Shown here: positions 1-14,892 of the stretch, one piece after another
Layout: each line of letters begins with the position of its first letter
Numbering within the stretch: position 1 is the stretch's first letter
Assembly: GCA_964415895.1 (NCBI GenBank)
Contig: CAYQCC010000003.1
Location: 3,053 to 67,052 of the forward strand
DNA length: 64,000 nucleotides
Origin: an uncultured Candidatus Saccharibacteria bacterium
GTDB taxonomy: Bacteria; Patescibacteriota; Minisyncoccia; Phycocordibacterales; UBA1006
Direction: 5' to 3'
Notes under the pieces: generated by a model
Databases searched by the model: none
Told to the model about the DNA's origin: nothing
What the model saw: the letters and a program-made list of their open reading frames with translations, nothing else
Translations under genes and position numbers: made by a program

Positions 1-49
1 TTCCATAATCAATTCCCATGTATTTCATGGGTTTACTATAGCATACGAA

Positions 50-90
50 ATACAAATGTGGGATTTGCTGCGCAAATCCCACATTTGTAT
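50..90. terminator. Palindromic hairpin 'acaaatgtgggatttgc-tgc-gcaaatcccacatttgt' followed by T-run; likely bidirectional terminator upstream of the tRNA
   Basis: Perfect ~17-bp inverted repeat read directly in sequence, flanked by A/T runs. Confidence 0.5.
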
Positions 91-151
91 TTCTGCTTGT
101 ATTTTCCAGACAATTTGATATAGTAGCCACGCATAACCTGCACCAATTCAC

Positions 152-236
152 GGAGGCGTGGATGAGTGGTTTAAATCAACAGTCTTGAAAACTGTCGACT
201 CGAAAGGGTCCGTGAGTTCGAATCTCACCGCCTCCG
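152..236 (+). tRNA. tRNA-Ser (anticodon TGA), class II with long variable arm
   Basis: Acceptor GGAGGCG/CGCCTCC; anticodon stem ACAGT/ACTGT with loop CTTGAAA (U33, anticodon UGA); long variable arm CGACTCGAAAGGGTCCG; T-arm GTGAG-TTCGAAT-CTCAC; discriminator G. Confidence 0.85.
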
Positions 237-1919
237 CATAGTGATACAAAACTCTTCGTTTTGATGATTTAACCCTTCGTATGTAAGGGTTTTTTCATTG
301 CCGAACCCCTCAAAATTGCTCTGTATCATTTTTATCCCAGAAAAGAATACTTCTATTGATTTTTTACTGTAAAATATGAGTTTTTCTTCATCCCATACTA
401 TGTTCGAACCCAGTGCAGTTAACACTCTTCTTTTTGCTTCATACGAACCGTTTTCAATTGTGTTTATTACTGATGATGCAACATCTGTTATTTCATCTAG
501 TTTTTTTACCCATTCAGTATTTACTGGCTTTGAATTATAAATATCGGAGTATTCAATATCTATCTCTGCCAAGAAATCATCTCGTTCTTCTTTTGTAAGT
601 GAGCCTTCAATAAATAATCTTGTGGCTCGTTTCTTTTTATCATCATACTGCTGTTTTCTTTTTTCAATATCTTCAATTTTTCGTAGACCATCTTTTACTT
701 CCTGTTCAGCTATTTCGTGAATATATTTCTTACCCCAATCAATGAAAGGGCTTGGAGTAGAGAGGTTGTCTTTTGCGTACTGAATAAATTCAGTATTTAC
801 TCTCTCTTCAGTCACAGAATGATATTCAAGTTTTTTCTTTTTCTTTCGGTTATCAAAATAATACTGTTGTATAAAATACTTAGGGTTTTCGAGTGTTGAA
901 ATTCGTTTGTTACATTTTGGACAGTGAGTTTTATCTCTATACGCAAATTTATGTTTGCAGTCGCACCATAGTTGTACTTTGATGTCCTGAGAAAGAGTGT
1001 ATCCTAGTGACGAATTAATAAAACCTGTATAGGTCATTTCGTGTTTTTGGTTTTTAGGCTTGTTTCTACCACCCAATATCTGCTCAATCTTGTTAAAATT
1101 GGTTTCGGTAATCATTCTTGGTAGGTTACTATCGAGCGTATGTCTCTCACCTTGAACATAAAAGAAACCTGCGATAACTGGATTATGGAGAAGTTTTCCA
1201 ATATATTCTCGAGTGACAAAATTTCCTCCTAAATTTTTATGTTTCGCTGTTGTAAGTTTTAATTCTTCAACGGCGTATTTATGAATTTTTGTAATGGAAT
1301 ATCTCCCTGAAAGAAATTCCTCTAAAAGTTTTTGGACTTTCCAAAAACGTTCATCATCCACATACCACCAACGTGTTCCTTTTTCTCCCTGTTTTGAATT
1401 TAGGTAACCAATAGTTGCAAGTCCTGAAGGTAGCCCCATTGTACGAGCCTTGTCTCGCTGTCCTCGTTTTACATCTCTACTGAGTGCTAGGGAATACTCT
1501 TTTGATGCACCAAATTTCTGTGCTATGACTGATACGTCGGAACTGTCATCCCAGACTTCAATGTTGTCATCACAAACAGTAATAATCATCAACTTGCCTT
1601 CACTCAAAAGGTCAATGAGAATACCTCCTTCGGTCATATTGCGAGCGATACGGTTCAAGTGCCACGCTAAAATACAGTTTATTTTTCCTGAAAAAATATC
1701 ACTCAACATTTGAGTAAACAGTGGTCGCTTGTGTGCATTTTTTGCAGAGCGAGCTTCTTGGTATTTTGATATTGCTGGAGTGAGAGTTTTATGTTTCTCT
1801 CTCACTTTGTTTATTGCGTCTTCTTGTCCCTCAAGTGATAGTACCTGTCTCTCTCCGTCTCGAGAAGATTTTCTCAAGTATTCAGCAATCTTTAAGTTTT
1901 TATTTTCTAGTTTTTCCAT
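225..1919 (-). CDS. Large serine recombinase (resolvase/integrase family, serine catalytic N-domain plus C-terminal recombinase/zinc-ribbon domain)
   Basis: N-terminal 'AEYLRKSSRDGERQVLSLEGQ' catalytic-serine motif; C-terminal Cys cluster 'CDCKHK...HCPKCNK'; 564 aa; stop lies ~12 nt inside the 3' end of tRNA-Ser. Confidence 0.8.
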   Translation of the reverse strand: MEKLENKNLKIAEYLRKSSRDGERQVLSLEGQEDAINKVREKHKTLTPAISKYQEARSAKNAHKRPLFTQMLSDIFSGKINCILAWHLNRIARNMTEGGILIDLLSEGKLMIITVCDDNIEVWDDSSDVSVIAQKFGASKEYSLALSRDVKRGQRDKARTMGLPSGLATIGYLNSKQGEKGTRWWYVDDERFWKVQKLLEEFLSGRYSITKIHKYAVEELKLTTAKHKNLGGNFVTREYIGKLLHNPVIAGFFYVQGERHTLDSNLPRMITETNFNKIEQILGGRNKPKNQKHEMTYTGFINSSLGYTLSQDIKVQLWCDCKHKFAYRDKTHCPKCNKRISTLENPKYFIQQYYFDNRKKKKKLEYHSVTEERVNTEFIQYAKDNLSTPSPFIDWGKKYIHEIAEQEVKDGLRKIEDIEKRKQQYDDKKKRATRLFIEGSLTKEERDDFLAEIDIEYSDIYNSKPVNTEWVKKLDEITDVASSVINTIENGSYEAKRRVLTALGSNIVWDEEKLIFYSKKSIEVFFSGIKMIQSNFEGFGNEKTLTYEGLNHQNEEFCITMRRR

Positions 1920-2459
1920 ATAAATTAAACAAAAATGAGGTAACGACTTGGTTTCTTTTAGTTGCTACACCAGAGAAAAAGTCATTACCTCGTTTTTATT
2001 TACAAAAACATTTTTTAATAAGTCTCAAATACGATGTTCTTGTAATTCTCTGATGTAGCACTGCTAATATAGCATTTTTCTTTATCCTTTCCAAAGGGAG
2101 GCTAAAAGCCTGTGTTTACCAGTCTTTTTACCCAACTACTCGATGATTATTTTCGTTCTCATCTGATAACGTAGAAACAATAGTTTCCCTATTCAACATC
2201 ACTGTAACCGTGACGTCACTCTTGCCCCTGTCGGTAGCTTAGCGTCGGGTAGGATTATCATTTTACGCTGTTCCTATTTACCCCGCTTTGTTCTTTATCC
2301 CCACCAACTAGGGTTCCTGCCCTAGCCATCAGCTATAAAGTCTTCACATTTAACGGCATCCAAGGGGTGGCTGTGAAGTTCGCCTACCATTTCCCCTCAG
2401 CAAATCGAGCTAATACTAGCTCTGAAATAAACACACTATGTTCATTTCAGAACAAACAT

Positions 2460-2623
2460 TTAAGCTTCTAAAACACGAATTTTTAAGTCTTCTACCATAG
2501 GAACAATAATTGAAAGTCCAATTTCATTTATCTCCTCATCTGTTAATGCTCCATCAAAGTCCTCACCGAAAGTTTTTCGGAGAGCAATTCGTAAATCTTC
2601 AATTGCTTTCTTTGATAAATGCA
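2460..2623 (-). CDS. Small hypothetical protein (54 aa; MHLSKKAIEDLRIALRKTFGEDFDGALTDEEINEIGLSIIVPMVEDLKIRVLEA)
   Basis: Hand-translated uninterrupted frame below the ORF-track cutoff; protein-like composition; no recognisable family. Confidence 0.3.
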
Positions 2624-2706
2624 TAAATAAAAACACAACGTAGTGTTGTGCTTTTATAGTAAACCCATATCGTTATTGTTTATTAAACTAAATCTGGGAC
2701 CCACAT

Positions 2707-3477
2707 TTAGTATTTTTTATCAATTTCTTTTTTTATTTTAACAATATGCTGTTTATCAATATGGATTTTATGTTTTCCTAATTCTTTGGATATTTCAACA
2801 AGTGTTTTTCCTTGAGATTTTGAAATAACTTCTTTAATTTTTGAGGTTTTTGGATTATTTTTTACCTTTTTATTCTTATATAAATTTGTCGTTATGTGTT
2901 GTCTCAAAAGTGGCTTTATGTCACTTTCAAAGTGTTTATCGATAAAGTTAATTAAGTCATTTTTGGTTATTTCTGGGTGTAATAAAATACCAACTGGCTT
3001 TTCGTTAAATAGGTCCTTAGGTGTTCCTATACTTTCTTCAAACCATTCAAAATCAACCACTTCCTGTAATCCATACCTATTGTAAAATTCTGTAATCTTC
3101 TCGCTCCAATCAAAAGATATCTGATTAAAAAATAGGTAGTAAGCAACGATACTTGGTGTAAAAATTGTTATAGGTTCAATGTGTCCTTTGAGTATATTTT
3201 CTTGTATCTCTTGTCTTATTTTTTGTGCTAAGTTGTTGTTTGTTTTCTTATCTTTAGTAAGCAGTTGAGTGGGAAGAAAAAGAAGGTGTTCTTCTTCGGA
3301 CAGGATAATATATTCATCTTCAGTTATTTCAAAACCATCTTCGGGGATATGGTATTTCTGTCTCATTTCCATAATTTTGTTCACAAAAAATGGTGAGTAC
3401 ATAAAATCCTCTAGTACTTTCAAAACTTTTTTAGTTGTTTGAGGGAGCTCCTTTTTCTTTGGTGTAGCATTTTTCAT
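2707..3477 (-). CDS. Hypothetical protein, 256 aa (island cargo; C-terminal basic/HTH-like segment)
   Basis: Long ORF with coding-like composition; no motif recognised. Confidence 0.5.
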   Translation of the reverse strand: MKNATPKKKELPQTTKKVLKVLEDFMYSPFFVNKIMEMRQKYHIPEDGFEITEDEYIILSEEEHLLFLPTQLLTKDKKTNNNLAQKIRQEIQENILKGHIEPITIFTPSIVAYYLFFNQISFDWSEKITEFYNRYGLQEVVDFEWFEESIGTPKDLFNEKPVGILLHPEITKNDLINFIDKHFESDIKPLLRQHITTNLYKNKKVKNNPKTSKIKEVISKSQGKTLVEISKELGKHKIHIDKQHIVKIKKEIDKKY

Positions 3478-3720
3478 ACCCCTATAATAGCATTTTTGTC
3501 TTTATTTTTGAAGAAAATTATGATACATTTATATTGCTCAACAAACAAATTTAGTGCATTTCCTGCGAAGGCAGTTTTTGTCGTTGCTCGTCCACGGTAT
3601 TGGCATTCCAATATGAGGAAGATGAGCAATGGCAGAAATGCTTTGTTTGTTGAGCACCTCATTAATTGGGGTGCCAATACTTTGTATTAAGAAGACAAGG
3701 TTTGCACCCATTGCAACCTT

Positions 3721-4368
3721 ATGAAATATATTTATATATTCTTAATCGCAGTATTGGCAAATCTCACTTTTCAAACAAACGCCTTTGCGTATGATTACTA
3801 TTCCGACAACGGAATGAACTACAGCGATGAACAGTTCAAAAGAGATATGAAATCATATATTGATGAACAAATGACCAGACAAGAAAATCAAGAATTACTA
3901 GACCGTATTCGCTCGAAAGGCAATGGTCACACTGATACCGATATTCAGATACTTCAAGAAAAGTTTAACCAACAACAAAAAGACAATCAGATGACATTAG
4001 ACCAAATGAAGCAGATGGTTGATAGTGTAAATGCAGATACGGCTAAATTACTACAAGAAAAAGAAACGTATCAAAATACTCGCACTTTTTGTTTATCATT
4101 AGCAGAAAAATATGCTGTATCTGGAGCTACGAGTGACCTTGTGACAAATTGTAGAAAATACAATGTTGAAATACCGCTAGAGAAAAAAGTTACGACCGTT
4201 GCAGGAAAAGAAAGTGTAAAAGAGGAACCAAGAGAACAAACACTTGATGAAATTCTTGCCAGTCCAAGTAGTTCAACAACGCCTATAGCTCAAGAGGTGT
4301 CACAAAAGCAATCATTCTTTAAGCGTGCAGTTTCTCATATTAAGGGCTGGTTTTCTTGGTTACGTTAA
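3721..4368 (+). CDS. Secreted coiled-coil protein (signal peptide MKYIYIFLIAVLANLTFQTNAFA)
   Basis: N-terminal hydrophobic signal with AFA cleavage-like site; Q/E/K-rich body. Confidence 0.55.
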   Translation: MKYIYIFLIAVLANLTFQTNAFAYDYYSDNGMNYSDEQFKRDMKSYIDEQMTRQENQELLDRIRSKGNGHTDTDIQILQEKFNQQQKDNQMTLDQMKQMVDSVNADTAKLLQEKETYQNTRTFCLSLAEKYAVSGATSDLVTNCRKYNVEIPLEKKVTTVAGKESVKEEPREQTLDEILASPSSSTTPIAQEVSQKQSFFKRAVSHIKGWFSWLR

Positions 4369-4573
4369 GCTACTTTCTGCTCAGTGACCGAATACGATAT
4401 TTGCCCGAATTTGATGGTGTTTTGTTAAAATAAGTAATTGGTACATTTTAAGATGAAAAACCTTATGAAGAGGCAAATAAGTGGCTTCTAGGTGGGTATC
4501 ATATTATAGGCTTACTGTCTAAAACTTATTATACCTGTCTTGGTTAATCTTCCTTATTTTTTTGTACGCATCC

Positions 4574-4597
4574 TGTCTAATCCTGTGGAGTTTTTGG
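4574..4597. repeat. Left boundary repeat 'tgtctaatcctgtggagtttttgg' (related to 12501..12524). Further 'GTCTAATCTT' copies at 4666..4678 and 4699..4710, and a tandem 'CCCTTGGGTT' x3 at 4632..4667
   Basis: Direct sequence comparison: 13-mer gtctaatcttacg identical at 4666..4678 and 12502..12514; flanking ggagtttttg shared. Confidence 0.6.
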
Positions 4598-4740
4598 TAC
4601 TATATTTATATTATCTATTCTTATCTCTTCTACCCTTGGGTTCCCCTTGGATTTCCCTTGGGTCTAGTATCTCTGGTCTAATCTTACGCAAAGTATCTGT
4701 ATTTTCAGGTCTAATCTTGCATAGATTTTATATAGACTTT

Positions 4741-6018
4741 CTAGTCTAAGACTGTTTTAAGAGTTTCTACTACCTGTAAATTTTCTCTTAGTGCCTTCTT
4801 TACTTCAGCCTCTAATACGTCTTTCCCTTTGTGGATAACCTTATTTCTAACATCTTTATACGAAGAACACCAGTTAGTCCACAACGACTGGTTTTTATTT
4901 TCTAAGGTAAATCCAGTAACTTCTCTTAAAACTTCTTTTAATCTTGTTTTTGTTTTCCAGTTATCGTCTTTAGATATAAAATCTATAGCCTCTTGCTCAG
5001 TTAAACCTTTATTCTTTTGCAGTTTATCAACAAGAAAGTTTTCAATAAAAATCTCAAGACCTTGATAGGATTGAACAACTGCTAATGCGTAGTTTTTATG
5101 ATTAAAGGAGTTTTCAGCATCCAGCAAAAGTAAGTTATACAGGTCTGGCTTTTGACCCTCTTCAAGCATTTTTTCTATTGCCTCAATTTCAACTTTTGAG
5201 CGATTTATAGTTGCCGTTTCTACATTCATTGGAAGAAGATATAAGCCTTGATTTAGTTCAGTGAAATAAATCATATTTATACTTAGCGTACCCAATCTTG
5301 TTATGTATTCTTGCTTAGTGGTAAATCGATAACTATCAATAAGTTTATTTACCGCATCAAGGGCTTTTTCATTGACCGTGTCTATAACTTTTTCTGATAG
5401 CTCTTTATTCTCGAGGTCTTCTTTTTTGACTTCTAAGTTGAACTGAATATATAAGCGAGTAAATCTGAAAATACCGTTTGTGTCCTTAATTTTTTGAAGG
5501 TTGATGCCTGTGTAATTTTGTTCCCAGCCATCACTAGGGTCAATTGGCATTTTAGGAGTAAGGAATTCACTGTCTTTTAAGTATGTAATTCTATCATCTG
5601 CGTAGAAATCAACTTCATCGGACGGTTTTCCGTCTGAAATAGCTTTTTTTGTCCAAATCTTTTGAGGTGTTAAAAGAGCAGCATCATCAGGGGTGTGTAA
5701 TAAGACTTCAAGGTCATAATTGTTTGGTATATGTAGACAGTAAGGTAGATGAGCTTCAACAAATACATTTCCGTAATCGAAATCTTTCATTGCATTTCTG
5801 CCATTAAAACTAAAAAAAGATTGTGCTACAAAAATACCACTTCCTCCTGTTGGGGATGTTTTTGTGATTTCAGTAAGCAATACAGATTTTGCATCATCTT
5901 CATTTAATTGTTTAAAGCTTTCATCTAATAAAGCATTAAAATTAATGAACTCGCCAGTTAAGCCTGATTTTGCTTGCATATTAATATGGACCACTTTTCG
6001 TTTGTATGGGTCTGACAT
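4741..6018 (-). CDS. Hypothetical 425-aa protein with C-terminal Rx4H (HEPN-like) motif 'VRNKVIHKG'; candidate abortive-infection/defence protein divergent from hsdM
   Basis: ORF track; R-x4-H motif ~40 aa from the C-terminus; position directly upstream of a Type I R-M operon. Confidence 0.45.
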   Translation of the reverse strand: MSDPYKRKVVHINMQAKSGLTGEFINFNALLDESFKQLNEDDAKSVLLTEITKTSPTGGSGIFVAQSFFSFNGRNAMKDFDYGNVFVEAHLPYCLHIPNNYDLEVLLHTPDDAALLTPQKIWTKKAISDGKPSDEVDFYADDRITYLKDSEFLTPKMPIDPSDGWEQNYTGINLQKIKDTNGIFRFTRLYIQFNLEVKKEDLENKELSEKVIDTVNEKALDAVNKLIDSYRFTTKQEYITRLGTLSINMIYFTELNQGLYLLPMNVETATINRSKVEIEAIEKMLEEGQKPDLYNLLLLDAENSFNHKNYALAVVQSYQGLEIFIENFLVDKLQKNKGLTEQEAIDFISKDDNWKTKTRLKEVLREVTGFTLENKNQSLWTNWCSSYKDVRNKVIHKGKDVLEAEVKKALRENLQVVETLKTVLD

Positions 6019-6136
6019 AATTCATTCATTATATCATTTTTAGGCTAATTTGTAGTGCTATGCAAAATTATTTAGCAAGCTATAAAACCATTATTTTCTA
6101 GTAAAATGATGGTTTTTATGGTAAAATAATACTATT

Positions 6137-7594
6137 ATGTTCGAACAAACTTTTAAAAATATCGATGATATTTTACATAAAGATGCAGGCTGTGGAAGTG
6201 AGCTTGATTATGTAGAGCAAACCTCTTGGGTGTTGTTTTTGAAGTATCTTGATGATTTAGAAGAGGACCGAAAAACCGCATCAGAACTTGATGGAAAAAA
6301 GTATCTTCCTCTCATTAAACCTGAATACAAGTGGAGTGTTTGGGCAACACCAAAACGTAGCGACGGCAAGGTGGACCATAACGCAATGACAGGCGATGAT
6401 TTGTTGGATTTTGTAAACGTTAAACTCTTCCCTTATCTTAAGGGATTTAAAAAATCTGCTGAAAATGCTGATACCTTGGAATATAAAATCGGAGAAATCT
6501 TTAGTGAAATCAAAAACAGAATACAATCAGGATATAATCTACGTGAAGTAATCAATCTGATTGATACGCTACGTTTTCGTTCTGATAGCGAAAAGCACGA
6601 GATGAGCCACCTCTATGAGGCTAAAATTCAAAATATGGGTAACGCAGGGCGTAATGGTGGTGAATACTATACACCTCGTCCACTCATTACTACTATCGTG
6701 CGTGTTGTTGGTCCAAAAATTGGTGACAAGATTTATGACGGAGCAGTAGGAAGTGCAGGCTTTTTGTGTGAAGCATTTGAGTATCTAAAAAATAGCAAAA
6801 GCCTGACTACAAAAGATACCGAGATTTTACAAAAGCAAACATTCTATGGGAAAGAGAAAAAGTCTCTCGCATATATCATTGGTATTATGAATATGATTTT
6901 GCACGGTATTGAAGCGCCAAACATTATCCATACCAATACACTTGCAGAAAATCTTGCAGATATTCAAGAAAAGGACCGTTACGATGTGGTTCTTGCAAAC
7001 CCTCCTTTTGGTGGAAAAGAACGCGCAGAGGTCCAACAAAACTTTCCCATAAAAACAAGCGAGACAGCATCGCTTTTCTTGCAACATTTTATCAAGATTT
7101 TACGTGCTGGTGGACGTGCGGGTATTGTCATTAAAAATACATTTCTTAGTAACACTGACAATGCCAGCATTGCGCTTCGTAAGCAACTCCTCGAAAACTG
7201 TAACCTTCACACGGTACTTGATTTGCCAGGTGGGACCTTTACGGGTGCTGGTGTTAAAACAGTTGTGTTATTTTTCCAAAAAGGAACCCCTACACGCAAG
7301 GTGTGGTTTTATCAATTAAATCTCGACCGTAATTTAGGAAAAACTAATCCATTAAGTGAAAAGGATTTGGCTGAATTTGTAACACTACAAAAAACCTTTG
7401 CTGACAGTGATAATTCGTGGAATGTTGATGTTTCTACTATCGACCAAAATACTTTTGATTTGAGTGTAAAAAACCCTCATAAAAAGGAAGAGAAAGGATT
7501 TCGTGAACCAAAAGAGATTTTGAAAGAAATTGAAATACTTGATAAGCAAAGTAAAGATATAGTCGGGGGTATTCTGAAGTTAATCAATCCTTAA
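6137..7594 (+). CDS. hsdM: Type I restriction-modification system, DNA methyltransferase subunit M (N6-adenine)
   Basis: NPPF(G) motif IV 'VLANPPFGG'; SAM-binding 'DGAVGSAGFL'; N-terminal HsdM_N-like region; 485 aa. Confidence 0.9.
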   Translation: MFEQTFKNIDDILHKDAGCGSELDYVEQTSWVLFLKYLDDLEEDRKTASELDGKKYLPLIKPEYKWSVWATPKRSDGKVDHNAMTGDDLLDFVNVKLFPYLKGFKKSAENADTLEYKIGEIFSEIKNRIQSGYNLREVINLIDTLRFRSDSEKHEMSHLYEAKIQNMGNAGRNGGEYYTPRPLITTIVRVVGPKIGDKIYDGAVGSAGFLCEAFEYLKNSKSLTTKDTEILQKQTFYGKEKKSLAYIIGIMNMILHGIEAPNIIHTNTLAENLADIQEKDRYDVVLANPPFGGKERAEVQQNFPIKTSETASLFLQHFIKILRAGGRAGIVIKNTFLSNTDNASIALRKQLLENCNLHTVLDLPGGTFTGAGVKTVVLFFQKGTPTRKVWFYQLNLDRNLGKTNPLSEKDLAEFVTLQKTFADSDNSWNVDVSTIDQNTFDLSVKNPHKKEEKGFREPKEILKEIEILDKQSKDIVGGILKLINP

Positions 7595-7599
7595 GATAT

Positions 7600-8832
7600 A
7601 TGCTTACAAATACCACAACAAATACATTTAACTTATCGCAAGATAACATTGAAGATATTGCAATTAATACTTCAAATGACGGAGAAACCTGCTATATTTC
7701 GAGAGCAGACAACAGAACCATATTTTATGGTGATTTTATTATTTACGATGGACCAAAAGTAAAAAAGTGTTGTAGTGTTACCTTTCAAAAAAGTAGCAAG
7801 ACGACAAAGTTTATACCTAGATTGGTTTTTTATAAAATCAACCAAGAAGGTAATATCGTAGACACGAATAGTCAGAAAGTAAACATTGAATTTAATCAAT
7901 CAGAAACAGGGCTATTTGAGTTTTGGAAGCTAATCTCATTCCTTAAGGGGTATAAAGACTTGATTGATGTCGGTGACTTTGATGAAAAGTATAAAGTTAT
8001 TGATAATTCTTTGTACATTGCAGAATTTAAAAATAAACAAGAATTTGATAAGGTACAAGAATTAAAAAAGCTAGATATTGATGAGGATACTCTTAAATCA
8101 TATTTAGCAGATAAACGAAAAGATGATTTAGTTTTATTTGCACAACTTTTAGCCGATAATAAGGCTAGAGAAGATTATCGAACTCAATACAATGTTACAA
8201 AGCAAGGAGATGAGGCAATATGGCATCATTTCTTAAAAAATAGAACTTGGATATTGGGCTTAAATACAGAACTTAAGTTTATTCAGGACTTTGCCGATGA
8301 GGTCCACGTTGGTAATCCTGATACAACAAACAAAGGAAATCCAACCACTGATTTAATGGGTATTTCAGACTATACCACCCTTGTTGAGCTAAAAACCTCT
8401 GAAACTAAGTTCTTTACAGAAACTAAAACATCAAATTCTCGAGCTGGTACTTGGTCTTTTTCCGCAGAGTTTATTGAGGGTATAAGTCAATGCTTATCTC
8501 AAAAAAATAGTTGGGATAAAAATCAGGGTTCTAAGCAATTAGTTGTTGATGGAAGCGTTAAAGACCAAAACGTTTATAGAACTACTGACCCAAACACTGT
8601 ATTTATTATCGGAAACAAAGAAAAAGAATTACCCAAAAACCAAACAACTCCAGATATTCTCGTAAAAAGAGATACACTTGAAAGATTTCGTCGAAATAGT
8701 CGAAATGTTGTTATCATTTCATATGATGAGCTTTACCAAAAGGCTTATTATATAGTTCACCATACAACTGCTCCAGATTTGGTGTACGATAATGAAAAAT
8801 TATCAGAAGACACTAATAGTATCCCATTTTAA
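7600..8832 (+). CDS. Uncharacterised 410-aa protein embedded between hsdM and hsdS; C-terminal PD-(D/E)xK-like motif (D...ELK); candidate R-M-embedded defence nuclease (DUF4263/Shedu-like?)
   Basis: 5-nt and 3-nt gaps to hsdM and hsdS indicate co-transcription; motif 'GISDYTTLVELKTSE'; no M/S/R-subunit motifs. Confidence 0.5.
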   Translation: MLTNTTTNTFNLSQDNIEDIAINTSNDGETCYISRADNRTIFYGDFIIYDGPKVKKCCSVTFQKSSKTTKFIPRLVFYKINQEGNIVDTNSQKVNIEFNQSETGLFEFWKLISFLKGYKDLIDVGDFDEKYKVIDNSLYIAEFKNKQEFDKVQELKKLDIDEDTLKSYLADKRKDDLVLFAQLLADNKAREDYRTQYNVTKQGDEAIWHHFLKNRTWILGLNTELKFIQDFADEVHVGNPDTTNKGNPTTDLMGISDYTTLVELKTSETKFFTETKTSNSRAGTWSFSAEFIEGISQCLSQKNSWDKNQGSKQLVVDGSVKDQNVYRTTDPNTVFIIGNKEKELPKNQTTPDILVKRDTLERFRRNSRNVVIISYDELYQKAYYIVHHTTAPDLVYDNEKLSEDTNSIPF

Positions 8833-8835
8833 TTT

Positions 8836-10047
8836 ATGAAAACTAACTGGGAAATAAAAAAGCTAGATGAATTATACAGGGTTGGCTCGAGTAAACGAGT
8901 GCTAAAGTCTCAATGGAAAACCAAAGGGGTGCCTTTTTATAGAGGTAGAGAGATAACACGTCTTTCCAATGATGGTTTTGTTGAAAATGAGTTGTATATT
9001 TCTGAAGAGCACTATACTGAACTTTTAGAAAAAACAGGTGTTCCAGTTGCTGGGGATATTGTTATTACTGCAATTGGGACAATCGGAAATACGTATATAG
9101 TTCGTGATACAGATAAGTTTTATTTTAAAGATGCGAGCGTTTTGTGGCTTAAAAAAATCTCCGATGTAAGTAGTGAGTTTTTGAGATATTTTTTGAAATC
9201 ATCATTATTTTTCAATCAATTAAGCAAAGGAAATGGTGCAACCGTTGACACCCTAACAATAGAAAAGTTGCAAGGAATTAAACTACCCTTGCCCTCTTTA
9301 ATTGAACAAAAACGCATTGTTTCCATTCTAGATAAAGCTTTTAGTGAAATTGAAAAAGCAAAAACAAATGCTGAGCAAAACCTCAAAAATGCGAAAGAGC
9401 TTTTTGAAAGTTATTTACAAGGGGTGTTTGAGAATAAAGGTGAAGATTGGGAAGAGAAAACATTAGGAGAGGTTTTAGTAAAAACAGAAACTGTTGACCC
9501 AACCAAAAAACCAAATAAAGAGTTTATTTATCTTGATGTTTCAAGTGTAAATAAGGAAACCAAAGAAATTGAAAATGCTACCGTTTTGCTTGGCAAAGAT
9601 GCACCAAGCCGAGCTAGAAAGTTGGTTAGAACTAACGATGTTATTTTTGCTACTGTTAGACCAACTCATAGTAGAGTTGCTCTAATTACTGATGAGTATG
9701 ATGAACAAGTTTGTAGCACAGGTTATTTTGTTTTAAGAGCAAAGGATTTTCTTAATAATAATTTTGTGTTCTATTTTCTTCTTACATACGGTTTCAATAA
9801 ACAGATGGAAAAACTTCAAAAAGGAGCAAGTTATCCTGCTGTAACTGATGCAGAAGTCAAAAGCATTGTAATACCTTTTCCAAAATCAAAAGAAGAACAA
9901 CAAGCAACCATTCAAAAATTAGATACCCTGCGAGCCGAAACCAAAAAACTTGAAGAAATATACAGAAATAAAATTACAGACTGCGAAGAACTCAAAAAGT
10001 CGATTTTACACAAAGCCTTTACTGGCGAATTATCAACCCCTAACTAA
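8836..10047 (+). CDS. hsdS: Type I restriction-modification system, specificity subunit S (two target-recognition domains)
   Basis: 403 aa; duplicated TRD architecture with conserved central and C-terminal coiled-coil spacers (LPLPSL...QKRIVSILD...; LDTLRAET). Confidence 0.8.
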   Translation: MKTNWEIKKLDELYRVGSSKRVLKSQWKTKGVPFYRGREITRLSNDGFVENELYISEEHYTELLEKTGVPVAGDIVITAIGTIGNTYIVRDTDKFYFKDASVLWLKKISDVSSEFLRYFLKSSLFFNQLSKGNGATVDTLTIEKLQGIKLPLPSLIEQKRIVSILDKAFSEIEKAKTNAEQNLKNAKELFESYLQGVFENKGEDWEEKTLGEVLVKTETVDPTKKPNKEFIYLDVSSVNKETKEIENATVLLGKDAPSRARKLVRTNDVIFATVRPTHSRVALITDEYDEQVCSTGYFVLRAKDFLNNNFVFYFLLTYGFNKQMEKLQKGASYPAVTDAEVKSIVIPFPKSKEEQQATIQKLDTLRAETKKLEEIYRNKITDCEELKKSILHKAFTGELSTPN

Positions 10048-10056
10048 TCAATTCAT

Positions 10057-12414
10057 ATGAACGAAGCAGAAACAAGAGCAGAAATGATTGACCCAAAACT
10101 AACTGCCCTCGGCTGGGGTGTTGTTGATGGTTCAAAGGTACTCCGTGAATACAACATTACCGCAGGAAAAATAAAGGTTGGAGAAAAGAGGGGTAAGCCA
10201 ATGATTGCTGACTATGTATTGGTCTACAAGGGCGTAAAATTGGCTGTTATTGAGGCAAAATCAGTAAAATTAGATGTGAGTGAAGGTGTGGCACAAGCAA
10301 AGCAATATGCGCTCAAACTAGGTATTCGTACTACCTATGCAACTAATGGTAAAGAAATCTACGCAATTGATACGATGACAGCTGATGAGGGTTCTGTGGA
10401 TACTTTTCTGTCACCAGACGAGCTATGGAATAAAACATTCGAGGTACAAAATGAATGGCGAGAAAAGTTCGCATCGGTCCCATTCGAGGATAAAAGTGGT
10501 TCGTGGTCTCCACGATATTATCAAGAGCTAGCTGTTAAAAACACCCTCGAAGCAGTTGCGAATGGTAAAAACAGAATACTCCTCACACTGGCAACAGGTA
10601 CAGGTAAAACTGCTATTTCATTTCAAATTGCGTGGAAACTATTCCAAACTCGCTGGAATTTGTCAGATAGTGGTACTCGTCGTCCGCGTATTCTATTCCT
10701 TGCGGATAGAAACATATTAGCGGACCAAGCTTTTAATGCCTTCTCTGCATTTCCTGAAGACGCACTGGTACGCATTAATCCCAAGGAAATACGCAAAGGA
10801 GGTAAAGTTCCCACAAATGGAAGTATTTTCTTTACCATATTCCAAACGTTTATGAGTGGAACAGATAGTGAAGGAAACCCTGCTCCGTATTTTGGAGAAT
10901 ATCCGCCAGATTATTTTGATTTTATTATTATCGATGAGTGTCACCGCGGAGGTGCAAATGATGAGAGTAATTGGCGAGGTATTTTAGAGTACTTTTCACC
11001 AGCGGTACAGCTCGGTCTGACAGCTACACCAAAACGAAAAGATAACGTTGATACCTATAAGTACTTTGGTGAACCAGTATACATCTACTCACTCAAAGAA
11101 GGTATTGATGACGGATTTTTGACACCGTTTAAAGTGAAGCGTATCAAAACAACACTTGATGATTATATCTATACGAGCGATGACCAAATCGTTGAGGGTG
11201 AGATTGAGGCAGGAAAACTATATCAGGAAAAAGACTTTAACCGAACCATTGAAATACGTGAACGTGAAGCAAAACGTGTAAAAATCTTTTTAGATGATGC
11301 AAATCAAAACGAAAAAGCAATCATTTTCTGTGCTAATCAAACCCACGCCGCAGTGGTCCGTGATTTAGTAAATCAATACAGTGAAAGTAAGGACCCACAC
11401 TATTGTGTACGCGTAACTGCCAATGATGGCGAAATTGGCGAGCAATTCTTGCGAGAATTCCAAGATAACGAGAAGTTTATACCAACTATTCTAACTACCT
11501 CTCAAAAGCTCTCAACGGGTGTAGATGCTCGTAATATACGAAATGTAGTATTGATGCGCCCTGTGAACTCTATGATTGAATTCAAGCAGATTGTTGGTCG
11601 TGGTACTCGTTTATTTGATGGAAAGGAATTCTTTACTATCTATGACTTTGTTGATGCGTACCATCACTTTGCAGACCCAGAGTGGGACGGTGAACCTGTT
11701 TCAGATGAAGGTGATGTACTTGATGAAAATACTGGTGAAAAGATTAAGAAAGAAAAAGAGCAAGTCGAACGTGAGCCAAAAGTTGATGAAGAAAATACCG
11801 CTCCTAAAAAAGTAAAAGTGAAGCTTCGAAATGGTAAAGAAATGGAAATACAGCATATGGTTGCAACATCGTTTTGGGGAGCAGATGGTAAGCCTGTTTC
11901 TGCTGAAGAGTTCCTCCAAAACCTTTTTGGGGCACTACCACAATTCTTTACCTCTGAAGATGAATTGCGTGACCTATGGGGTAATCCAGTAACGCGTGCT
12001 ACATTACTTGAGAAACTTGAAGAAGCTGGTTATGGAAAAGAAGAACTTGCTTCACTGCAAAAACTTATTGATGCCGAAAAGAGTGATATTTTTGATGTAT
12101 TGGAATATGTTTTTAATAGTGATATCAAGCCTATAACAAGAGAAAATCGTGTCCAGTCTGCACATAATGACATTATGGGGGCCTTGTCAGAGAAACAACA
12201 AGAGTTTATCGATTTCGTACTCCAGAAATATATCGAGACAGGAGTTGAAGAATTAAGTGAAGAAAAACTATCATTGCTCCTTGTGAACAAATACCAGTCA
12301 CTCACAGATGCACAAAGTGCTCTAGGAGATACGACATCTATTCGCTCACTTTTCTTTAATTTCCAAAAGTATTTGTATCGTAAACCGAAACAAGAAACAT
12401 ACACAAAGGTTTAA
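10057..12414 (+). CDS. hsdR: Type I restriction enzyme R subunit (N-terminal PD-(D/E)xK nuclease plus SF2 helicase)
   Basis: Motif I 'LATGTGKT', motif II 'DECHRG', N-terminal 'VIEAKS' nuclease core; 785 aa; follows hsdS by 9 nt. Confidence 0.85.
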   Translation: MNEAETRAEMIDPKLTALGWGVVDGSKVLREYNITAGKIKVGEKRGKPMIADYVLVYKGVKLAVIEAKSVKLDVSEGVAQAKQYALKLGIRTTYATNGKEIYAIDTMTADEGSVDTFLSPDELWNKTFEVQNEWREKFASVPFEDKSGSWSPRYYQELAVKNTLEAVANGKNRILLTLATGTGKTAISFQIAWKLFQTRWNLSDSGTRRPRILFLADRNILADQAFNAFSAFPEDALVRINPKEIRKGGKVPTNGSIFFTIFQTFMSGTDSEGNPAPYFGEYPPDYFDFIIIDECHRGGANDESNWRGILEYFSPAVQLGLTATPKRKDNVDTYKYFGEPVYIYSLKEGIDDGFLTPFKVKRIKTTLDDYIYTSDDQIVEGEIEAGKLYQEKDFNRTIEIREREAKRVKIFLDDANQNEKAIIFCANQTHAAVVRDLVNQYSESKDPHYCVRVTANDGEIGEQFLREFQDNEKFIPTILTTSQKLSTGVDARNIRNVVLMRPVNSMIEFKQIVGRGTRLFDGKEFFTIYDFVDAYHHFADPEWDGEPVSDEGDVLDENTGEKIKKEKEQVEREPKVDEENTAPKKVKVKLRNGKEMEIQHMVATSFWGADGKPVSAEEFLQNLFGALPQFFTSEDELRDLWGNPVTRATLLEKLEEAGYGKEELASLQKLIDAEKSDIFDVLEYVFNSDIKPITRENRVQSAHNDIMGALSEKQQEFIDFVLQKYIETGVEELSEEKLSLLLVNKYQSLTDAQSALGDTTSIRSLFFNFQKYLYRKPKQETYTKV

Positions 12415-12441
12415 GTGGTAGAAATTATATCTCCAAAAGAT

Positions 12442-12468
12442 AACGTCATAACAAGGCGTTATTTTTTG
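12442..12468 (+). terminator. Rho-independent terminator after hsdR (ataacg-N-cgttat + T6)
   Basis: Hairpin plus T-run immediately after hsdR stop. Confidence 0.5.
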
Positions 12469-12500
12469 TAGATTAAGTTTTCTATAAAGTTTACGTGTCT

Positions 12501-12524
12501 TGTCTAATCTTACGGAGTTTTTGT
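12501..12524. repeat. Right boundary repeat 'tgtctaatcttacggagtttttgt' (direct-orientation partner of 4574..4597)
   Basis: See left repeat; same orientation; brackets the 425-aa gene plus hsdM-X-hsdS-hsdR. Confidence 0.6.
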
Positions 12525-12637
12525 TTAATTATCTTGATTATTTCGGGTGCTTGGTTGCTCATTCATTCATTTTCTTTGGTTATTATTTTTAGAACATCTT
12601 TACAAGTTTTGGAGTAAGAATTTTTTATATAGTCTAT

Positions 12638-12788
12638 GATAGGCTATCGATAGTCTATCGTTTACTATCTTTAGATATATTGCTTATGCTTACGCTTCTT
12701 TCAATATTGCTTTCCGAACATCATCCCACGTTCGGAGTAGGGATATTTGTTTTTGTTATAGTCTAAGATAGTCTATAGATAGACTATC
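12638..12788. promoter_or_regulatory. Cluster of palindromic operator-like boxes GATAG(G/T)CTATC. Two abutting copies at 12638..12659 and an inverted pair 'gatagtctat-ag-atagactatc' at 12767..12788
   Basis: Exact palindromes read in sequence; located in a 730-bp intergenic region between hsdR and the HNH gene. Confidence 0.45.
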
Positions 12789-12832
12789 TTGTTTATATTT
12801 TACGCTTCTTCTAATATTGCTTGCCGAACATC
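12690..12832. repeat. Two 33-bp direct repeats 'ttacgcttctt(t/c)(c/t)aatattgctt(t/g)ccgaacatc' (12690..12722 and 12800..12832), 110 bp apart, flanking the palindromic boxes
   Basis: 30/33 identity by eye alignment. Confidence 0.6.
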
Positions 12833-12912
12833 GTATACCCACTTCCGCCAAGAGAATAAAGTATCGGAGCTGACTCACTTGCCTCAAATGAGTGATAATG
12901 CCCTGACCAGTA

Positions 12913-12936
12913 AAAAGCACGGTTTCGTGCTTTTTA
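12913..12936. terminator. Rho-independent terminator hairpin aaaagcacg-gttt-cgtgctttt
   Basis: Perfect 9-bp stem, 4-nt loop, T-run; explains away listed ORF 12789..12971. Confidence 0.6.
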
Positions 12937-12951
12937 CTTTAAAATTGATAT

Positions 12952-13113
12952 ATGGAAACAAAAGAAAATGAAAAAACTGAGGAAGAGATTATTATCGACA
13001 ACGAATTGGACTATCTTGCGGAAGTTCTAGTAGAAGCATTCTTAGAAGAGAAAGGGTATGAGTCAATTGATTGGTTGTATCAAAAGAAGATTTGGCAAAA
13101 AAGAAAGAAATAG
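12952..13113 (+). CDS. Small acidic ORF (53 aa; METKENEKTEEEIIIDNELDYLAEVLVEAFLEEKGYESIDWLYQKKIWQKRKK) immediately upstream of the HNH gene
   Basis: Hand translation; ends 33 nt before the 13147 start; below ORF-track cutoff. Confidence 0.3.
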   Translation: METKENEKTEEEIIIDNELDYLAEVLVEAFLEEKGYESIDWLYQKKIWQKRKK

Positions 13114-13146
13114 ATTTTTTAGGTCAATTCATGGTAGGCTAAAAAT

Positions 13147-14241
13147 ATGCCTAGATGTATTTATTGTTTGAAAACAAGTCCAGAAGTTACTTTCGACACA
13201 ACGGAACATGTAATCCCTCAGTCTTTTGGTACTTACGAACCATTAACTCCTACTCTCGAGGAGCTAGTTTGTGATTCGTGCAATTCATTGTTTTCAAAAC
13301 TTGAAACCAAATTAAGAGAAGATACCTTTGAGGGTGTTTTTGGGCAAAGACTTAACTTTCAAAATAAAAACAGTATCACCATAAGAAATAAAAATTTCAA
13401 GATTACTTCTTTAAGTGAATTTAAAGATCCAATGTTTACTAGAACATTTTTTCTTTTTAAAATTGAAGATGAAAAGATTGTGCCTGATATCAAACCTCAC
13501 ATAACTATTAAAATGAAAAATGGCGGGTATAGAGTATTTCTTATAGAAGCACTGAAAAGAATAGAGAAAGATACCAGCAGGTTCAATAAGCTTAAAAAAG
13601 ATATATCAAAACTGAGCAAAGAAGACATTTGGATTTTTGTCCCTAGAGATGATGCTTCTTTGAAAGAAGCGGAGTCGATATTAAAAGATTACGGTATTGA
13701 ATATACAGAAAAGAGTAGAGGTATAGCTGGAGAAGAAACTCCGGAAGCAGTCGAAGTCATAGAGGATTACCAAGGTGTTGTAGATAAAGAAATTTGCAGG
13801 GTTTTAGCAAAAATAGTTTTTAACTATTTTACGTATTGTGCTAAAGAACAAGGAATGGCTGATTTGGTCTTCAGTCCAAATTTTGATCCTATTCGAAACT
13901 TTATTTTAAATGGCGCTGGATATAGTGATACTTTTGTACATATGCCCGAGAGGCGAATTCTAGGGCAAGAGGTTGGAACTAATAGGTATGTCTTTGGTCA
14001 TACGGTATGTTTCGGAGAAGATGAGGCAGGGAAAGTTTATTGTCACTTAGTTCTTTTCAGTTTTCGGCCTTACACAATATCTCTGGGAATTCTTCCGCAA
14101 GAAATAAAAAATCAATTATTTGGCTGCGGGCATGTTTTTGATCCTGTAACAAAACGAATTGAAAATATTGCTCAAAATACACAACCCCGCATGCCTGATG
14201 CTCTCGATCTGTCTTTTGGACTATATAAAAGATTTAGATAG
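13147..14241 (+). CDS. HNH (His-Me finger) nuclease-domain protein with ~300-aa uncharacterised C-terminal extension; candidate defence protein
   Basis: N-terminal 'CIYC...EHVIPQSFG...CDSCNS' matches the CxxC...[DE]H...P...CxxCN HNH signature; 364 aa. Confidence 0.55.
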   Translation: MPRCIYCLKTSPEVTFDTTEHVIPQSFGTYEPLTPTLEELVCDSCNSLFSKLETKLREDTFEGVFGQRLNFQNKNSITIRNKNFKITSLSEFKDPMFTRTFFLFKIEDEKIVPDIKPHITIKMKNGGYRVFLIEALKRIEKDTSRFNKLKKDISKLSKEDIWIFVPRDDASLKEAESILKDYGIEYTEKSRGIAGEETPEAVEVIEDYQGVVDKEICRVLAKIVFNYFTYCAKEQGMADLVFSPNFDPIRNFILNGAGYSDTFVHMPERRILGQEVGTNRYVFGHTVCFGEDEAGKVYCHLVLFSFRPYTISLGILPQEIKNQLFGCGHVFDPVTKRIENIAQNTQPRMPDALDLSFGLYKRFR

Positions 14242-14439
14242 CCTCTTCAGTTAAAAGAGTAAGTTCTTTATCCATATAAACAATCCTAGCTCTCAGATTC
14301 GCCAGCAGTTCTCGCTTCTCAATCACCGTGCCTTCTTTTAGAATATACTTCGCATAGTTCCGTATATCGGTATCTTTTCTGTTCTCAACCTTGTCCGTGC
14401 TTCCAAGCACGGATCTTTGGAATATGTTAAAATACCCCT

Positions 14440-14850
14440 ATGAACTCAATTGCCCATATAGAAGTTAATGTTACAGATCTACAAACCTCAACAAAATTAT
14501 GGAATCTATTTATTTCTCATCTTGGATGGGAGCAATTCGATGTCGATGACCCTTTGGTAACTGGATTCAAAGGTTTGGATAAAACACACATATTTCTTGT
14601 TCAGACAGACCAAGAGTTTATAGGCAACGGATATCATCGTAAAAACATTGGATTAAATCACTTTGCTTTTAGAACAGATTCATTAGAAAAAGTAGATTTG
14701 TTCGCATCTTTTCTTAAAGAAAATGATATTCCTACTCTATATGGTGAAGGTCCAAAAGATTATTCTTTAGAGTATGGGCAAGAAAAGTATTATGCAGTTT
14801 TCTTTGAGGATCCTGACCGAATAAAAATTGAAGTAGTTTTTTGCAAGTAG
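14440..14850 (+). CDS. VOC/glyoxalase-bleomycin resistance family protein
   Basis: 136 aa; glyoxalase-like beta-alpha-beta-beta-beta composition 'HIEVNVTDL...HFAFRTDS'. Confidence 0.5.
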   Translation: MNSIAHIEVNVTDLQTSTKLWNLFISHLGWEQFDVDDPLVTGFKGLDKTHIFLVQTDQEFIGNGYHRKNIGLNHFAFRTDSLEKVDLFASFLKENDIPTLYGEGPKDYSLEYGQEKYYAVFFEDPDRIKIEVVFCK

Positions 14851-14892
14851 ACTATAATATAAAAACACACGATCGCTCGTGTATTTTTATTC

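Follow-up and report, generated by a model that had tools for sequence, protein, structure and literature searches.

The 364-amino-acid (aa) protein encoded at positions 13147–14241 of a 64,000-nucleotide (nt) stretch of contig CAYQCC010000003.1, from an uncultured Candidatus Saccharibacteria bacterium (assembly GCA_964415895.1; the whole stretch is called the window below), is, judging by its sequence, a self-contained nuclease and a member of a widespread uncharacterised family, in which an N-terminal HNH_5 nuclease is joined to a family-specific C-terminal domain (CTD). It is read here as a single-protein defence-type nuclease, a reading that as a whole has about an even chance of being right and in which the defence role is inferred. 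The parts of the gene that carry the argument are the following.

13147..14241, forward strand: 364-aa gene, HNH_5 nuclease at the N-terminus and family-specific CTD, based on the open reading frame (ORF), Pfam, full-length homologues and an AlphaFold model
13156..13311, forward strand: HNH (His-Me finger) core, aa 4–55, with zinc ligands C4/C7/C42/C45, catalytic E20-H21 and metal-binding N46, based on the Pfam match and conservation
13354..14238, forward strand: CTD, aa 70–364, about 290 aa without a recognised fold, with conserved R218, K222, N226, Y227, F246, R250, H285, Y309 and H329, based on family conservation

The protein starts with MPRCIYCLK... and carries the motif C4-x2-C7 ... E20-H21-V-I-P ... 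C42-x2-C45-N46 (CIYC...EHVIP...CDSCN), which is matched by the Pfam family HNH_5 (PF14279) with 35.8 bits over aa 4–55, above the gathering cut-off of 27.5; the HNH zinc-ribbon signature that a preliminary description of this DNA had reported is thereby borne out. Among the 128 family members compared, C4, Y6, C7, H21, C42, C45 and N46 are invariant, and at least 90% of the members share E20, P24, G28, E62, R218, K222, N226, Y227, F246, R250, H285, Y309, G328 and F331; HNH_5 itself was matched by all but two of the members (126/128). The invariance of the catalytic and zinc-binding residues indicates that the nuclease site is under selection; the C-terminal part has conserved basic, aromatic and histidine positions of its own. 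The isolated HNH profile found weak matches in the PDB, with E ~0.004 for IscB/Cas9-type entries and, beyond the usual cut-off, E 0.079 for 4h9d. By its residues, the gene probably encodes a real and catalytically competent HNH nuclease.

An exhaustive profile search against 1.84 billion representatives of protein clusters at 50% identity recovered 4421 matches at E<=1e-3, 1787 at E<=1e-10 and 598 at E<=1e-30, and the top 150 were almost throughout 320–380 aa long and aligned end to end. A word-indexed search of 5.8 billion clusters yielded 30 relatives of 327–379 aa, the named ones being Patescibacteria (Nomurabacteria, Pacebacteria). A motif-seeded scan, whose count is a lower bound, located 58 family loci in 185,579 species-representative genomes, spread over Patescibacteria, Melainabacteria, Nitrospira, Chloroflexota, Planctomycetes, Acidobacteriota, Legionella, Paenibacillus and one Thermoplasmata record. 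Given this uniform length and these scattered taxa, the family is large and patchily distributed, and its members share a single architecture. No additional Pfam domain was found in the longer members (P0076, P0120 and P0166). The 365-position profile PHROG 35254, which has no assigned function, matches the 364-aa protein at E=1e-10. Searches of IMG/VR and INPHARED (2.9 million viral contigs and 50,697 phage records) yielded no relative, and a plasmid search gave two weak matches only, so that a phage or plasmid origin of the gene was rejected. One of the plasmid matches, WP_000715243.1 on plasmid p02 of B. thuringiensis HD-771 (L072 5317-6402), is divergent and full-length, with an hhalign probability of 98.4%; it retains E-H and has lost the zinc-binding cysteines (CIYL..., VSHNANN). 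Its gene lies downstream of an SLFN-g3/AAA_30-like helicase gene, with one hypothetical gene between them.

The AlphaFold2 model of the whole protein is a single compact body (pLDDT 87.3, pTM 0.88), and a model of the CTD by itself reached a pLDDT of 78.8. As had been claimed in the preliminary description, the roughly 300 aa that follow the HNH core carry no annotation. Pfam returned nothing but HNH_5/HNH for the 128 members and left the CTD unannotated; NCBIfam gave zero matches for the 364-aa protein; PADLOC matched the HNH core alone, via its PtuB models, and left the CTD unmatched. A sequence profile search of the PDB found no match for the CTD at E<=1, and Foldseek found none at E<=1e-3 in PDB and BFVD with either the full-length or the CTD-only model. 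Among the non-significant Foldseek matches of both models, GHKL ATP-binding domains (TRAP1/Hsp90, GRP94, ParE/GyrB, MutL, Topo II) appear repeatedly (E 0.4–3.4, probability <=0.15), a hint of structural resemblance which we treat as a lead only and count as no evidence. The conserved K222-x3-N226, which lies on a helix, may loosely resemble a GHKL N-box.

A survey for partner genes covered the contigs of close homologues and 55 of the 58 genome loci, about 70 homologous loci in all. An all-versus-all BLAST of 287 neighbours, taken from within three genes of the family gene in either direction, revealed no general partner, the sole sizeable cluster being a large serine recombinase at seven loci of Patescibacteria (the candidate phyla radiation, CPR); nor was any small neighbour gene conserved across the homologues, as a toxin–antitoxin or nuclease–immunity pair would require. 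The nuclease had been described beforehand as standalone, which agrees with this absence of a conserved partner. Pfam and PADLOC scans found the 103 immediate (+-1) neighbours to be heterogeneous: they include the defence-type families DUF4238, HEPN_LA2681, DUF3644, DUF4209, FRG, DUF4145, mad3/mad8, PDC-S19/S39, Dsr1, HerA and a cytosine methylase, as well as housekeeping genes, e.g., ThiC and cytidylate kinase. Some neighbours recur within sub-clades, namely 228–272-aa and 233-aa proteins at some CPR loci, a 143/144-aa protein at the P0003/P0004 loci, DUF4209 at L021/L023, and UvrA-like/HerA-like proteins in Nitrospira; none of these is a general partner, and shared elements or synteny may explain some.

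The local history of the gene was read from blastn searches and alignments against relatives (L074–L079) with 84–97% identical flanks, which define the native state of the region. The features concerned are the following.

12901..14252, forward strand: accessory cassette of about 1.35 kb (hairpin, 53-aa ORF and HNH gene), based on comparison with L074–L079
225-1919, reverse strand: serine recombinase of the neighbouring island, its 3' end overlapping the tRNA-Ser 3' end
4741-6018, reverse strand: HEPN_Apea-like 425-aa protein, a weak, sub-threshold profile match
6137-12414: type I restriction–modification (R-M) operon hsdM-SduA(Shedu)-hsdS-hsdR, with the hsdR end at 12414
12415-12843: repeat-rich 'operator' spacer forming the right end of the island
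14234-14410, reverse strand: native 58-aa ORF, whose conserved counterpart in island-free relatives is called as a gene of 54 aa (about 88–91% nucleotide identity)

The cassette, whose left edge is uncertain within 12901-12917, takes the place of a radical-SAM-like gene and a TrpR-like gene (L074 4149-5790), both absent from the window. To its right, homology restarts 11 nt past the HNH stop codon, with window 14253-14887 matching L074 5791-6426. To its left, window 1-237, with a tRNA-Ser at 152-237, matches L074 3861-4096, and about 57 nt of native sequence between two insertions (12844-12900) match L074 4092-4148. Since native bases 4092-4148 of L074 restart at window position 12844, the intervening stretch (238-12843) represents an element of 12.6 kb that has integrated at the tRNA-Ser 3' end. 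Besides the genes listed, this island holds two genes of unassigned function. Its spacer consists of two tandem-like units of about 125 nt, each with GATAGnCTATC-type palindromes followed by TTACGCTTCTTCTAATATTGCTTGCCGAACATC; one possibility is that these repeats are binding sites of a recombinase or regulator. The short repeat TCTGGTCTAATCTTACG occurs in three copies (4672-4721 and 12498-12514), all of them intergenic in the island. The preliminary description had placed the HNH gene next to the R-M system and downstream of an operator-rich spacer. The positions hold; both features belong to the separate island and not to the HNH cassette, and their adjacency to the gene is therefore the outcome of two independent insertions. 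Sequence comparison thus indicates that the cassette is an acquisition independent of the R-M island. No att repeats were found flanking the cassette, and base composition does not set the region apart from its surroundings. The stop codon of the 58-aa ORF overlaps that of the HNH gene by 8 nt, and the ORF has a weak Pfam match to TTRAP (E=0.029). In some of the relatives, the slot between this ORF and a glyoxalase gene is occupied by sulfotransferase, TIR_2 (276 aa) and methyltransferase genes (L077 6768-9346, L078 3547-6125, L079 226-1909). Such differing gene content across relatives identifies the region as a variable hotspot, and with the type I R-M and Shedu island adjoining, the surroundings are defence-rich.

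This location in a variable hotspot suggests that the HNH gene serves anti-phage or anti-plasmid defence. Under this reading, the protein would act alone against phages or other mobile DNA. Because neither a cognate methyltransferase nor an immunity protein was found, the CTD would have to keep the nuclease harmless to its host: it could recognise a feature exclusive to foreign nucleic acid, or it could keep the HNH site switched off as long as no trigger is bound, and R218, K222, N226, Y227, R250, H285, Y309 and H329 might form its putative binding site. The substrate, as we infer it, is most likely DNA; tRNA is kept as a candidate, because PtuB-type HNH nucleases have been reported to act on either DNA or tRNA.

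Several observations weigh against a defensive, sensor-bearing nuclease. No PADLOC 2.0 model of a known or candidate system matches the protein beyond its HNH core. A profile search with the CTD by itself recovered the domain solely in fragments or in proteins that carry HNH_5, so the domain appears without other effector partners, unlike typical modular sensor domains; it also resembles no known sensor, and its role as a sensor or regulator is putative. Some homologues stand amid housekeeping genes, flanked by genes for a Gly_transporter-family protein and a SpoU methylase, or following ThiC or a DnaJ-domain protein. Finally, the middle Asn of H-N-H, which is the family consensus, is Thr34 in the window protein, a replacement that the nuclease likely tolerates.

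A bolder form of the defence reading is possible, if rather doubtful: the gene could be a PtuA-independent, Septu-like single-gene immune system, in which the CTD would be a new infection sensor or nucleotide-binding regulator, the HNH site might cut tRNA as Retron-Eco7 PtuB does, and the acidic peptide encoded upstream would be a newly evolved modulator. A more specific form, in which the protein would be a modification-dependent (type IV-like) restriction enzyme whose CTD reads modified phage bases and whose HNH domain cuts nearby, is unlikely. It would account for the missing methyltransferase, for the conserved aromatic and basic residues of the CTD and for the Mrr and R-M neighbours at some loci, and a nuclease joined to a separate sensor is the usual layout of modification-dependent enzymes, in which HNH is among the common nuclease types and further sensors are expected to be discovered (PMC12191111). 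However, the CTD does not resemble any known reader domain in Pfam, PADLOC or Foldseek searches and, unlike such domains, was not seen recombined with other nuclease classes; RNA could also be the substrate instead. Within the defence reading, we make no choice between the type IV-like and the trigger-activated mechanism.

The homologues often lie among defence and mobility genes. One close homologue has Mrr, N6/N4 methyltransferases and a serine recombinase nearby, and a second has a transposase, a recombinase, a type I R-M system and AAA_21/DUF4435; at other loci, an EcoRI R-M system and two recombinases lie nearby, or Abi_2 directly upstream. In Patescibacteria, a serine recombinase is the commoner neighbour of the family gene. 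In L011 (7057-9107) and L012, the called genes could not be translated with table 11, the Abi_2 neighbour contains four in-frame stops and the focal gene was flagged as not translating to the query, which suggests that the organism uses an alternative genetic code. One Nitrospirota metagenome-assembled genome (MAG) carries two copies of the family gene (L046 7984-9074 and L048 7984-9074) that are 98.35% identical over 1091 bp and have unrelated flanks. The repeated unit is bounded by GTT...GTT and ends in an attC-like palindrome, which in L048 appears again beyond the next small ORF, 601 nt further downstream; the sequence of these copies points to integron-cassette-like movement. HNH_5 is among the abundant functions of metagenomic integron gene cassettes (PMC7370490). 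A heuristic scan was positive for attC-like elements at L048 and also at L050; across the family it showed no enrichment (6/53 downstream vs 8/52 in the upstream control), and integron cassettes were rejected on this ground as a general explanation of how the family moves. The window cassette has no attC-like element, with native sequence returning 11 nt after the stop codon.

This mobility is what a selfish nuclease would show, that is, a free-standing homing-type or addiction gene whose CTD recognises a DNA site and which promotes its own spread. The layout of an N-terminal HNH with a large C-terminal domain, the gene-sized insertion or replacement with its right junction so close to the stop codon, the near-identical copies at unrelated loci of one MAG, the patchy phyletic distribution and the often adjacent serine recombinase are all in its favour. 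Nevertheless, none of the loci examined showed an intron or intein context, and the insertion sites are mutually unrelated and share no conserved target gene. Free-standing homing endonucleases are common in phages and viruses, whereas none of the viral contigs or phage records searched held a relative. The attC-like palindrome of the MAG unit points to integron-type movement rather than homing, and recombinases can account for the mobility of the surrounding elements. On balance, this explanation has only a small chance of being correct.

The ORF upstream of the HNH gene raises the question of a two-gene module. It and the signals around it are the following.

12952..13113, forward strand: 53-aa acidic orphan ORF (METKENEK...KRKK), based on the ORF, codon score and leaderless-start hexamer
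12940..12945, forward strand: -10-like hexamer TAAAAT, ending 6 nt before the ATG of the 53-aa ORF, based on hexamer statistics
13135..13140, forward strand: -10-like hexamer TAGGCT, closely preceded by TGG, its end 6 nt ahead of the HNH start codon, based on hexamer statistics
12911..12936, no strand: palindromic hairpin AAAAAGCACG-GTTT-CGTGCTTTTT, bidirectional terminator-like, at the left cassette edge, based on sequence and RNA fold

The ORF positions given beforehand, 12952-13113(+) and 13147-14241(+), were confirmed together with the 33-nt gap between them. Both ORFs lie in one reading frame, with three in-frame TAG stops between them; the homologues all start with MxxC, so that the 364-aa protein is neither fused to the 53-aa ORF nor extended at its N-terminus. 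The 53-aa product is acidic, as had been described, with an isoelectric point (pI) of 4.56, a net charge of -12 over residues 1–40 and of +6 over the basic tail (residues 41–53). Its codon usage scores as coding-like (0.41, with the two alternative frames at -0.73 and -0.69), and only 2.9% of spurious ORFs exceed this score. The window genome has 36.6% GC, and a Shine-Dalgarno core precedes only 1/51 genes; a TAnnnT hexamer ending exactly 6 nt before the ATG was found in 14/51 window genes compared with 2.6% of all ATGs (p=3e-11). This arrangement is a leaderless-mRNA signature, and the genome appears to use leaderless mRNAs. TAGGCT would accordingly be read as a probable leaderless promoter of the HNH gene itself, and a gene with its own -10 element is expressible independently of the 53-aa ORF. 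The hairpin at 12911-12936 is the dominant stem in the RNA fold, and relatives have a different hairpin at the equivalent place; the 53-aa ORF region contains no Rfam family and no other notable RNA structure.

The preliminary description had proposed that the two genes form a module of nuclease and small partner, in which the acidic protein, as an antitoxin, immunity protein or DNA mimic, would act as inhibitor or regulator of the HNH nuclease. Both indeed sit on the same cassette, the small ORF combines coding-like codon usage with the leaderless-start signature, and its strongly acidic residues 1–40 resemble colicin-DNase immunity proteins and DNA mimics, which are acidic. Against this, the 53-aa ORF had no homologue among 5.8 billion protein clusters, where the sole candidate was the ORF itself; tblastn against 82 fetched loci gave nothing below E=0.9; no Pfam, PADLOC or PHROG profile matched it; and no comparable ORF precedes the homologues, including the closest ones (P0002–P0005, 58–64% identity). 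An absence of the small ORF from all homologous loci had been named in advance as the outcome that would refute the module, and it is what was found. Because about 600 family clusters have no conserved partner, the nuclease generally needs none, and its own -10 element argues in the same direction; a two-gene module is thus quite improbable. The three available copies of the 53-aa ORF are 100% identical, so that strain comparison is silent on selection. From its sequence features, the ORF is probably a genuine gene that is confined to this strain or lineage, and it is not a conserved partner; under the single-protein defence reading it would have been carried in on the same cassette as a strain-specific orphan rather than as a general component of the system.

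That the gene encodes a housekeeping or repair nuclease without a conflict role, as the housekeeping neighbours of some homologues and a Nitrospira gene lying between UvrA-like and HerA-like ATPases in several species might suggest, is very unlikely, given that it is present in this strain and absent from close relatives with 84–97% identical flanks, is sporadic across phyla (58 loci, a lower bound, in 185,579 genomes) and frequently has mobile-element and defence neighbours. In Nitrospira, L037, L038 and L043 have a UvrA-like ABC ATPase (813–835 aa) upstream, and L033, L037 and L038 have a HerA/DUF87-like ATPase (839–845 aa) downstream, the two flanking the family gene together in L037 and L038 only; this layout may be a lineage-specific multi-gene arrangement or mere synteny.

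If the family defends alone, it would be a compact single-gene system (~1.1 kb) in many phyla, including the Patescibacteria, which have small genomes and few known defences, and it would bring a new sensor or regulatory fold on an HNH nuclease. A PtuB-like HNH without an ATPase partner also bears on how the PtuAB proteins of Septu and retrons choose between phage DNA and host tRNA, and on how they are kept inactive. If it is not defensive, about 600 clusters labelled only 'HNH endonuclease' would still constitute a distinct family with a conserved second domain.

Among known systems, the HNH core stands nearest to PtuB of Septu and of the type I-A retrons Retron-Eco7/Ec78, as a comparison suggested beforehand had anticipated. 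PtuB models are the sole PADLOC models that match the family (27/128 members, best E 1.7e-5), and the window protein itself matches at E=0.017 over 45 residues (aa 3–47). The likeness lies in an HNH_5-type His-Me finger with Cys4 zinc and a catalytic His, here C4/C7/C42/C45 and H21 and in PtuB C43/C46/C78/C90 and H57 (PMC12673091), and both PtuB and the 364-aa family are found in defence contexts. On the other hand, PtuB is a protein of about 216 aa with a short, three-helix C-terminal domain and forms a complex with the ABC ATPase PtuA (PMC12673091), whereas the window protein has 364 aa and an unrelated domain of about 290 aa. In Retron-Eco7, PtuB cleaves tRNA-Tyr, and phage DNA degradation has been reported for Septu PtuAB (PMC12673091); in another report, Septu itself is said to cleave tRNA-Tyr (PMC13096335). 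No PtuA (ABC/SMC-type ATPase) lies beside the window gene, and no ATPase family is recurrent among the neighbours of about 55 homologues. An identity with Septu/PtuAB was rejected on account of the missing PtuA and the different length and C-terminal domain. ZorE and AbiH-like families, also put forward for comparison, gave no match at E<=1 in PADLOC or Pfam, and the neighbours of the window gene are unrelated to ZorA/ZorB.

Two further groups share features with the protein. The free-standing HNH homing endonucleases (phage T4 Mob proteins, I-HmuI) share an N-terminal HNH with a C-terminal domain and a gene-sized presence/absence polymorphism; the 364-aa protein differs in being predicted as compact and globular rather than as an extended series of DNA-binding modules. 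Neither an intron, an intein nor a conserved target context was found at the examined loci of the family, so that the homing endonuclease in an intein or intron setting, which had been named as a possible refutation, did not materialise. The second is 'group 8' (PF14279, HNH_5) of the His-Me finger classification by Jablonska et al. 2017, comprising 158 bacterial proteins and one archaeal protein (PMC5714182); the main text of that paper contains no separate description of group 8. Like the 364-aa family, group 8 is defined by HNH_5 only and has no assigned function; the two may be equivalent, and the 364-aa family is much larger.

The same overall logic is found in Cap5 (HNH-SAVED) of the cyclic oligonucleotide-based antiphage signalling systems (CBASS), a single polypeptide of about 360–390 aa in which the HNH is N-terminal and a ligand-sensing domain makes up the C-terminal part. 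An identity with Cap5 was rejected, with no SAVED/Cap5 match in Pfam, PADLOC or Foldseek-PDB and no CD-NTase among the examined neighbours. The modification-dependent endonucleases (McrA-type HNH, END nucleases) are similar in being standalone nucleases with an extra domain, without a methyltransferase and in defence islands (PMC12191111). They differ in domain order, and the fold of the CTD is unrelated to that of any known reader domain; Pfam, PADLOC and Foldseek detected no modified-base reader (SRA, EVE/PUA, YTH, winged helix or iEndoIII) in the 364-aa protein. By analogy, the protein would best compare in its working with nucleases that carry a sensor of their own on the same chain, such as Cap5 or the modification-dependent enzymes, here with a domain that has no recognised fold.

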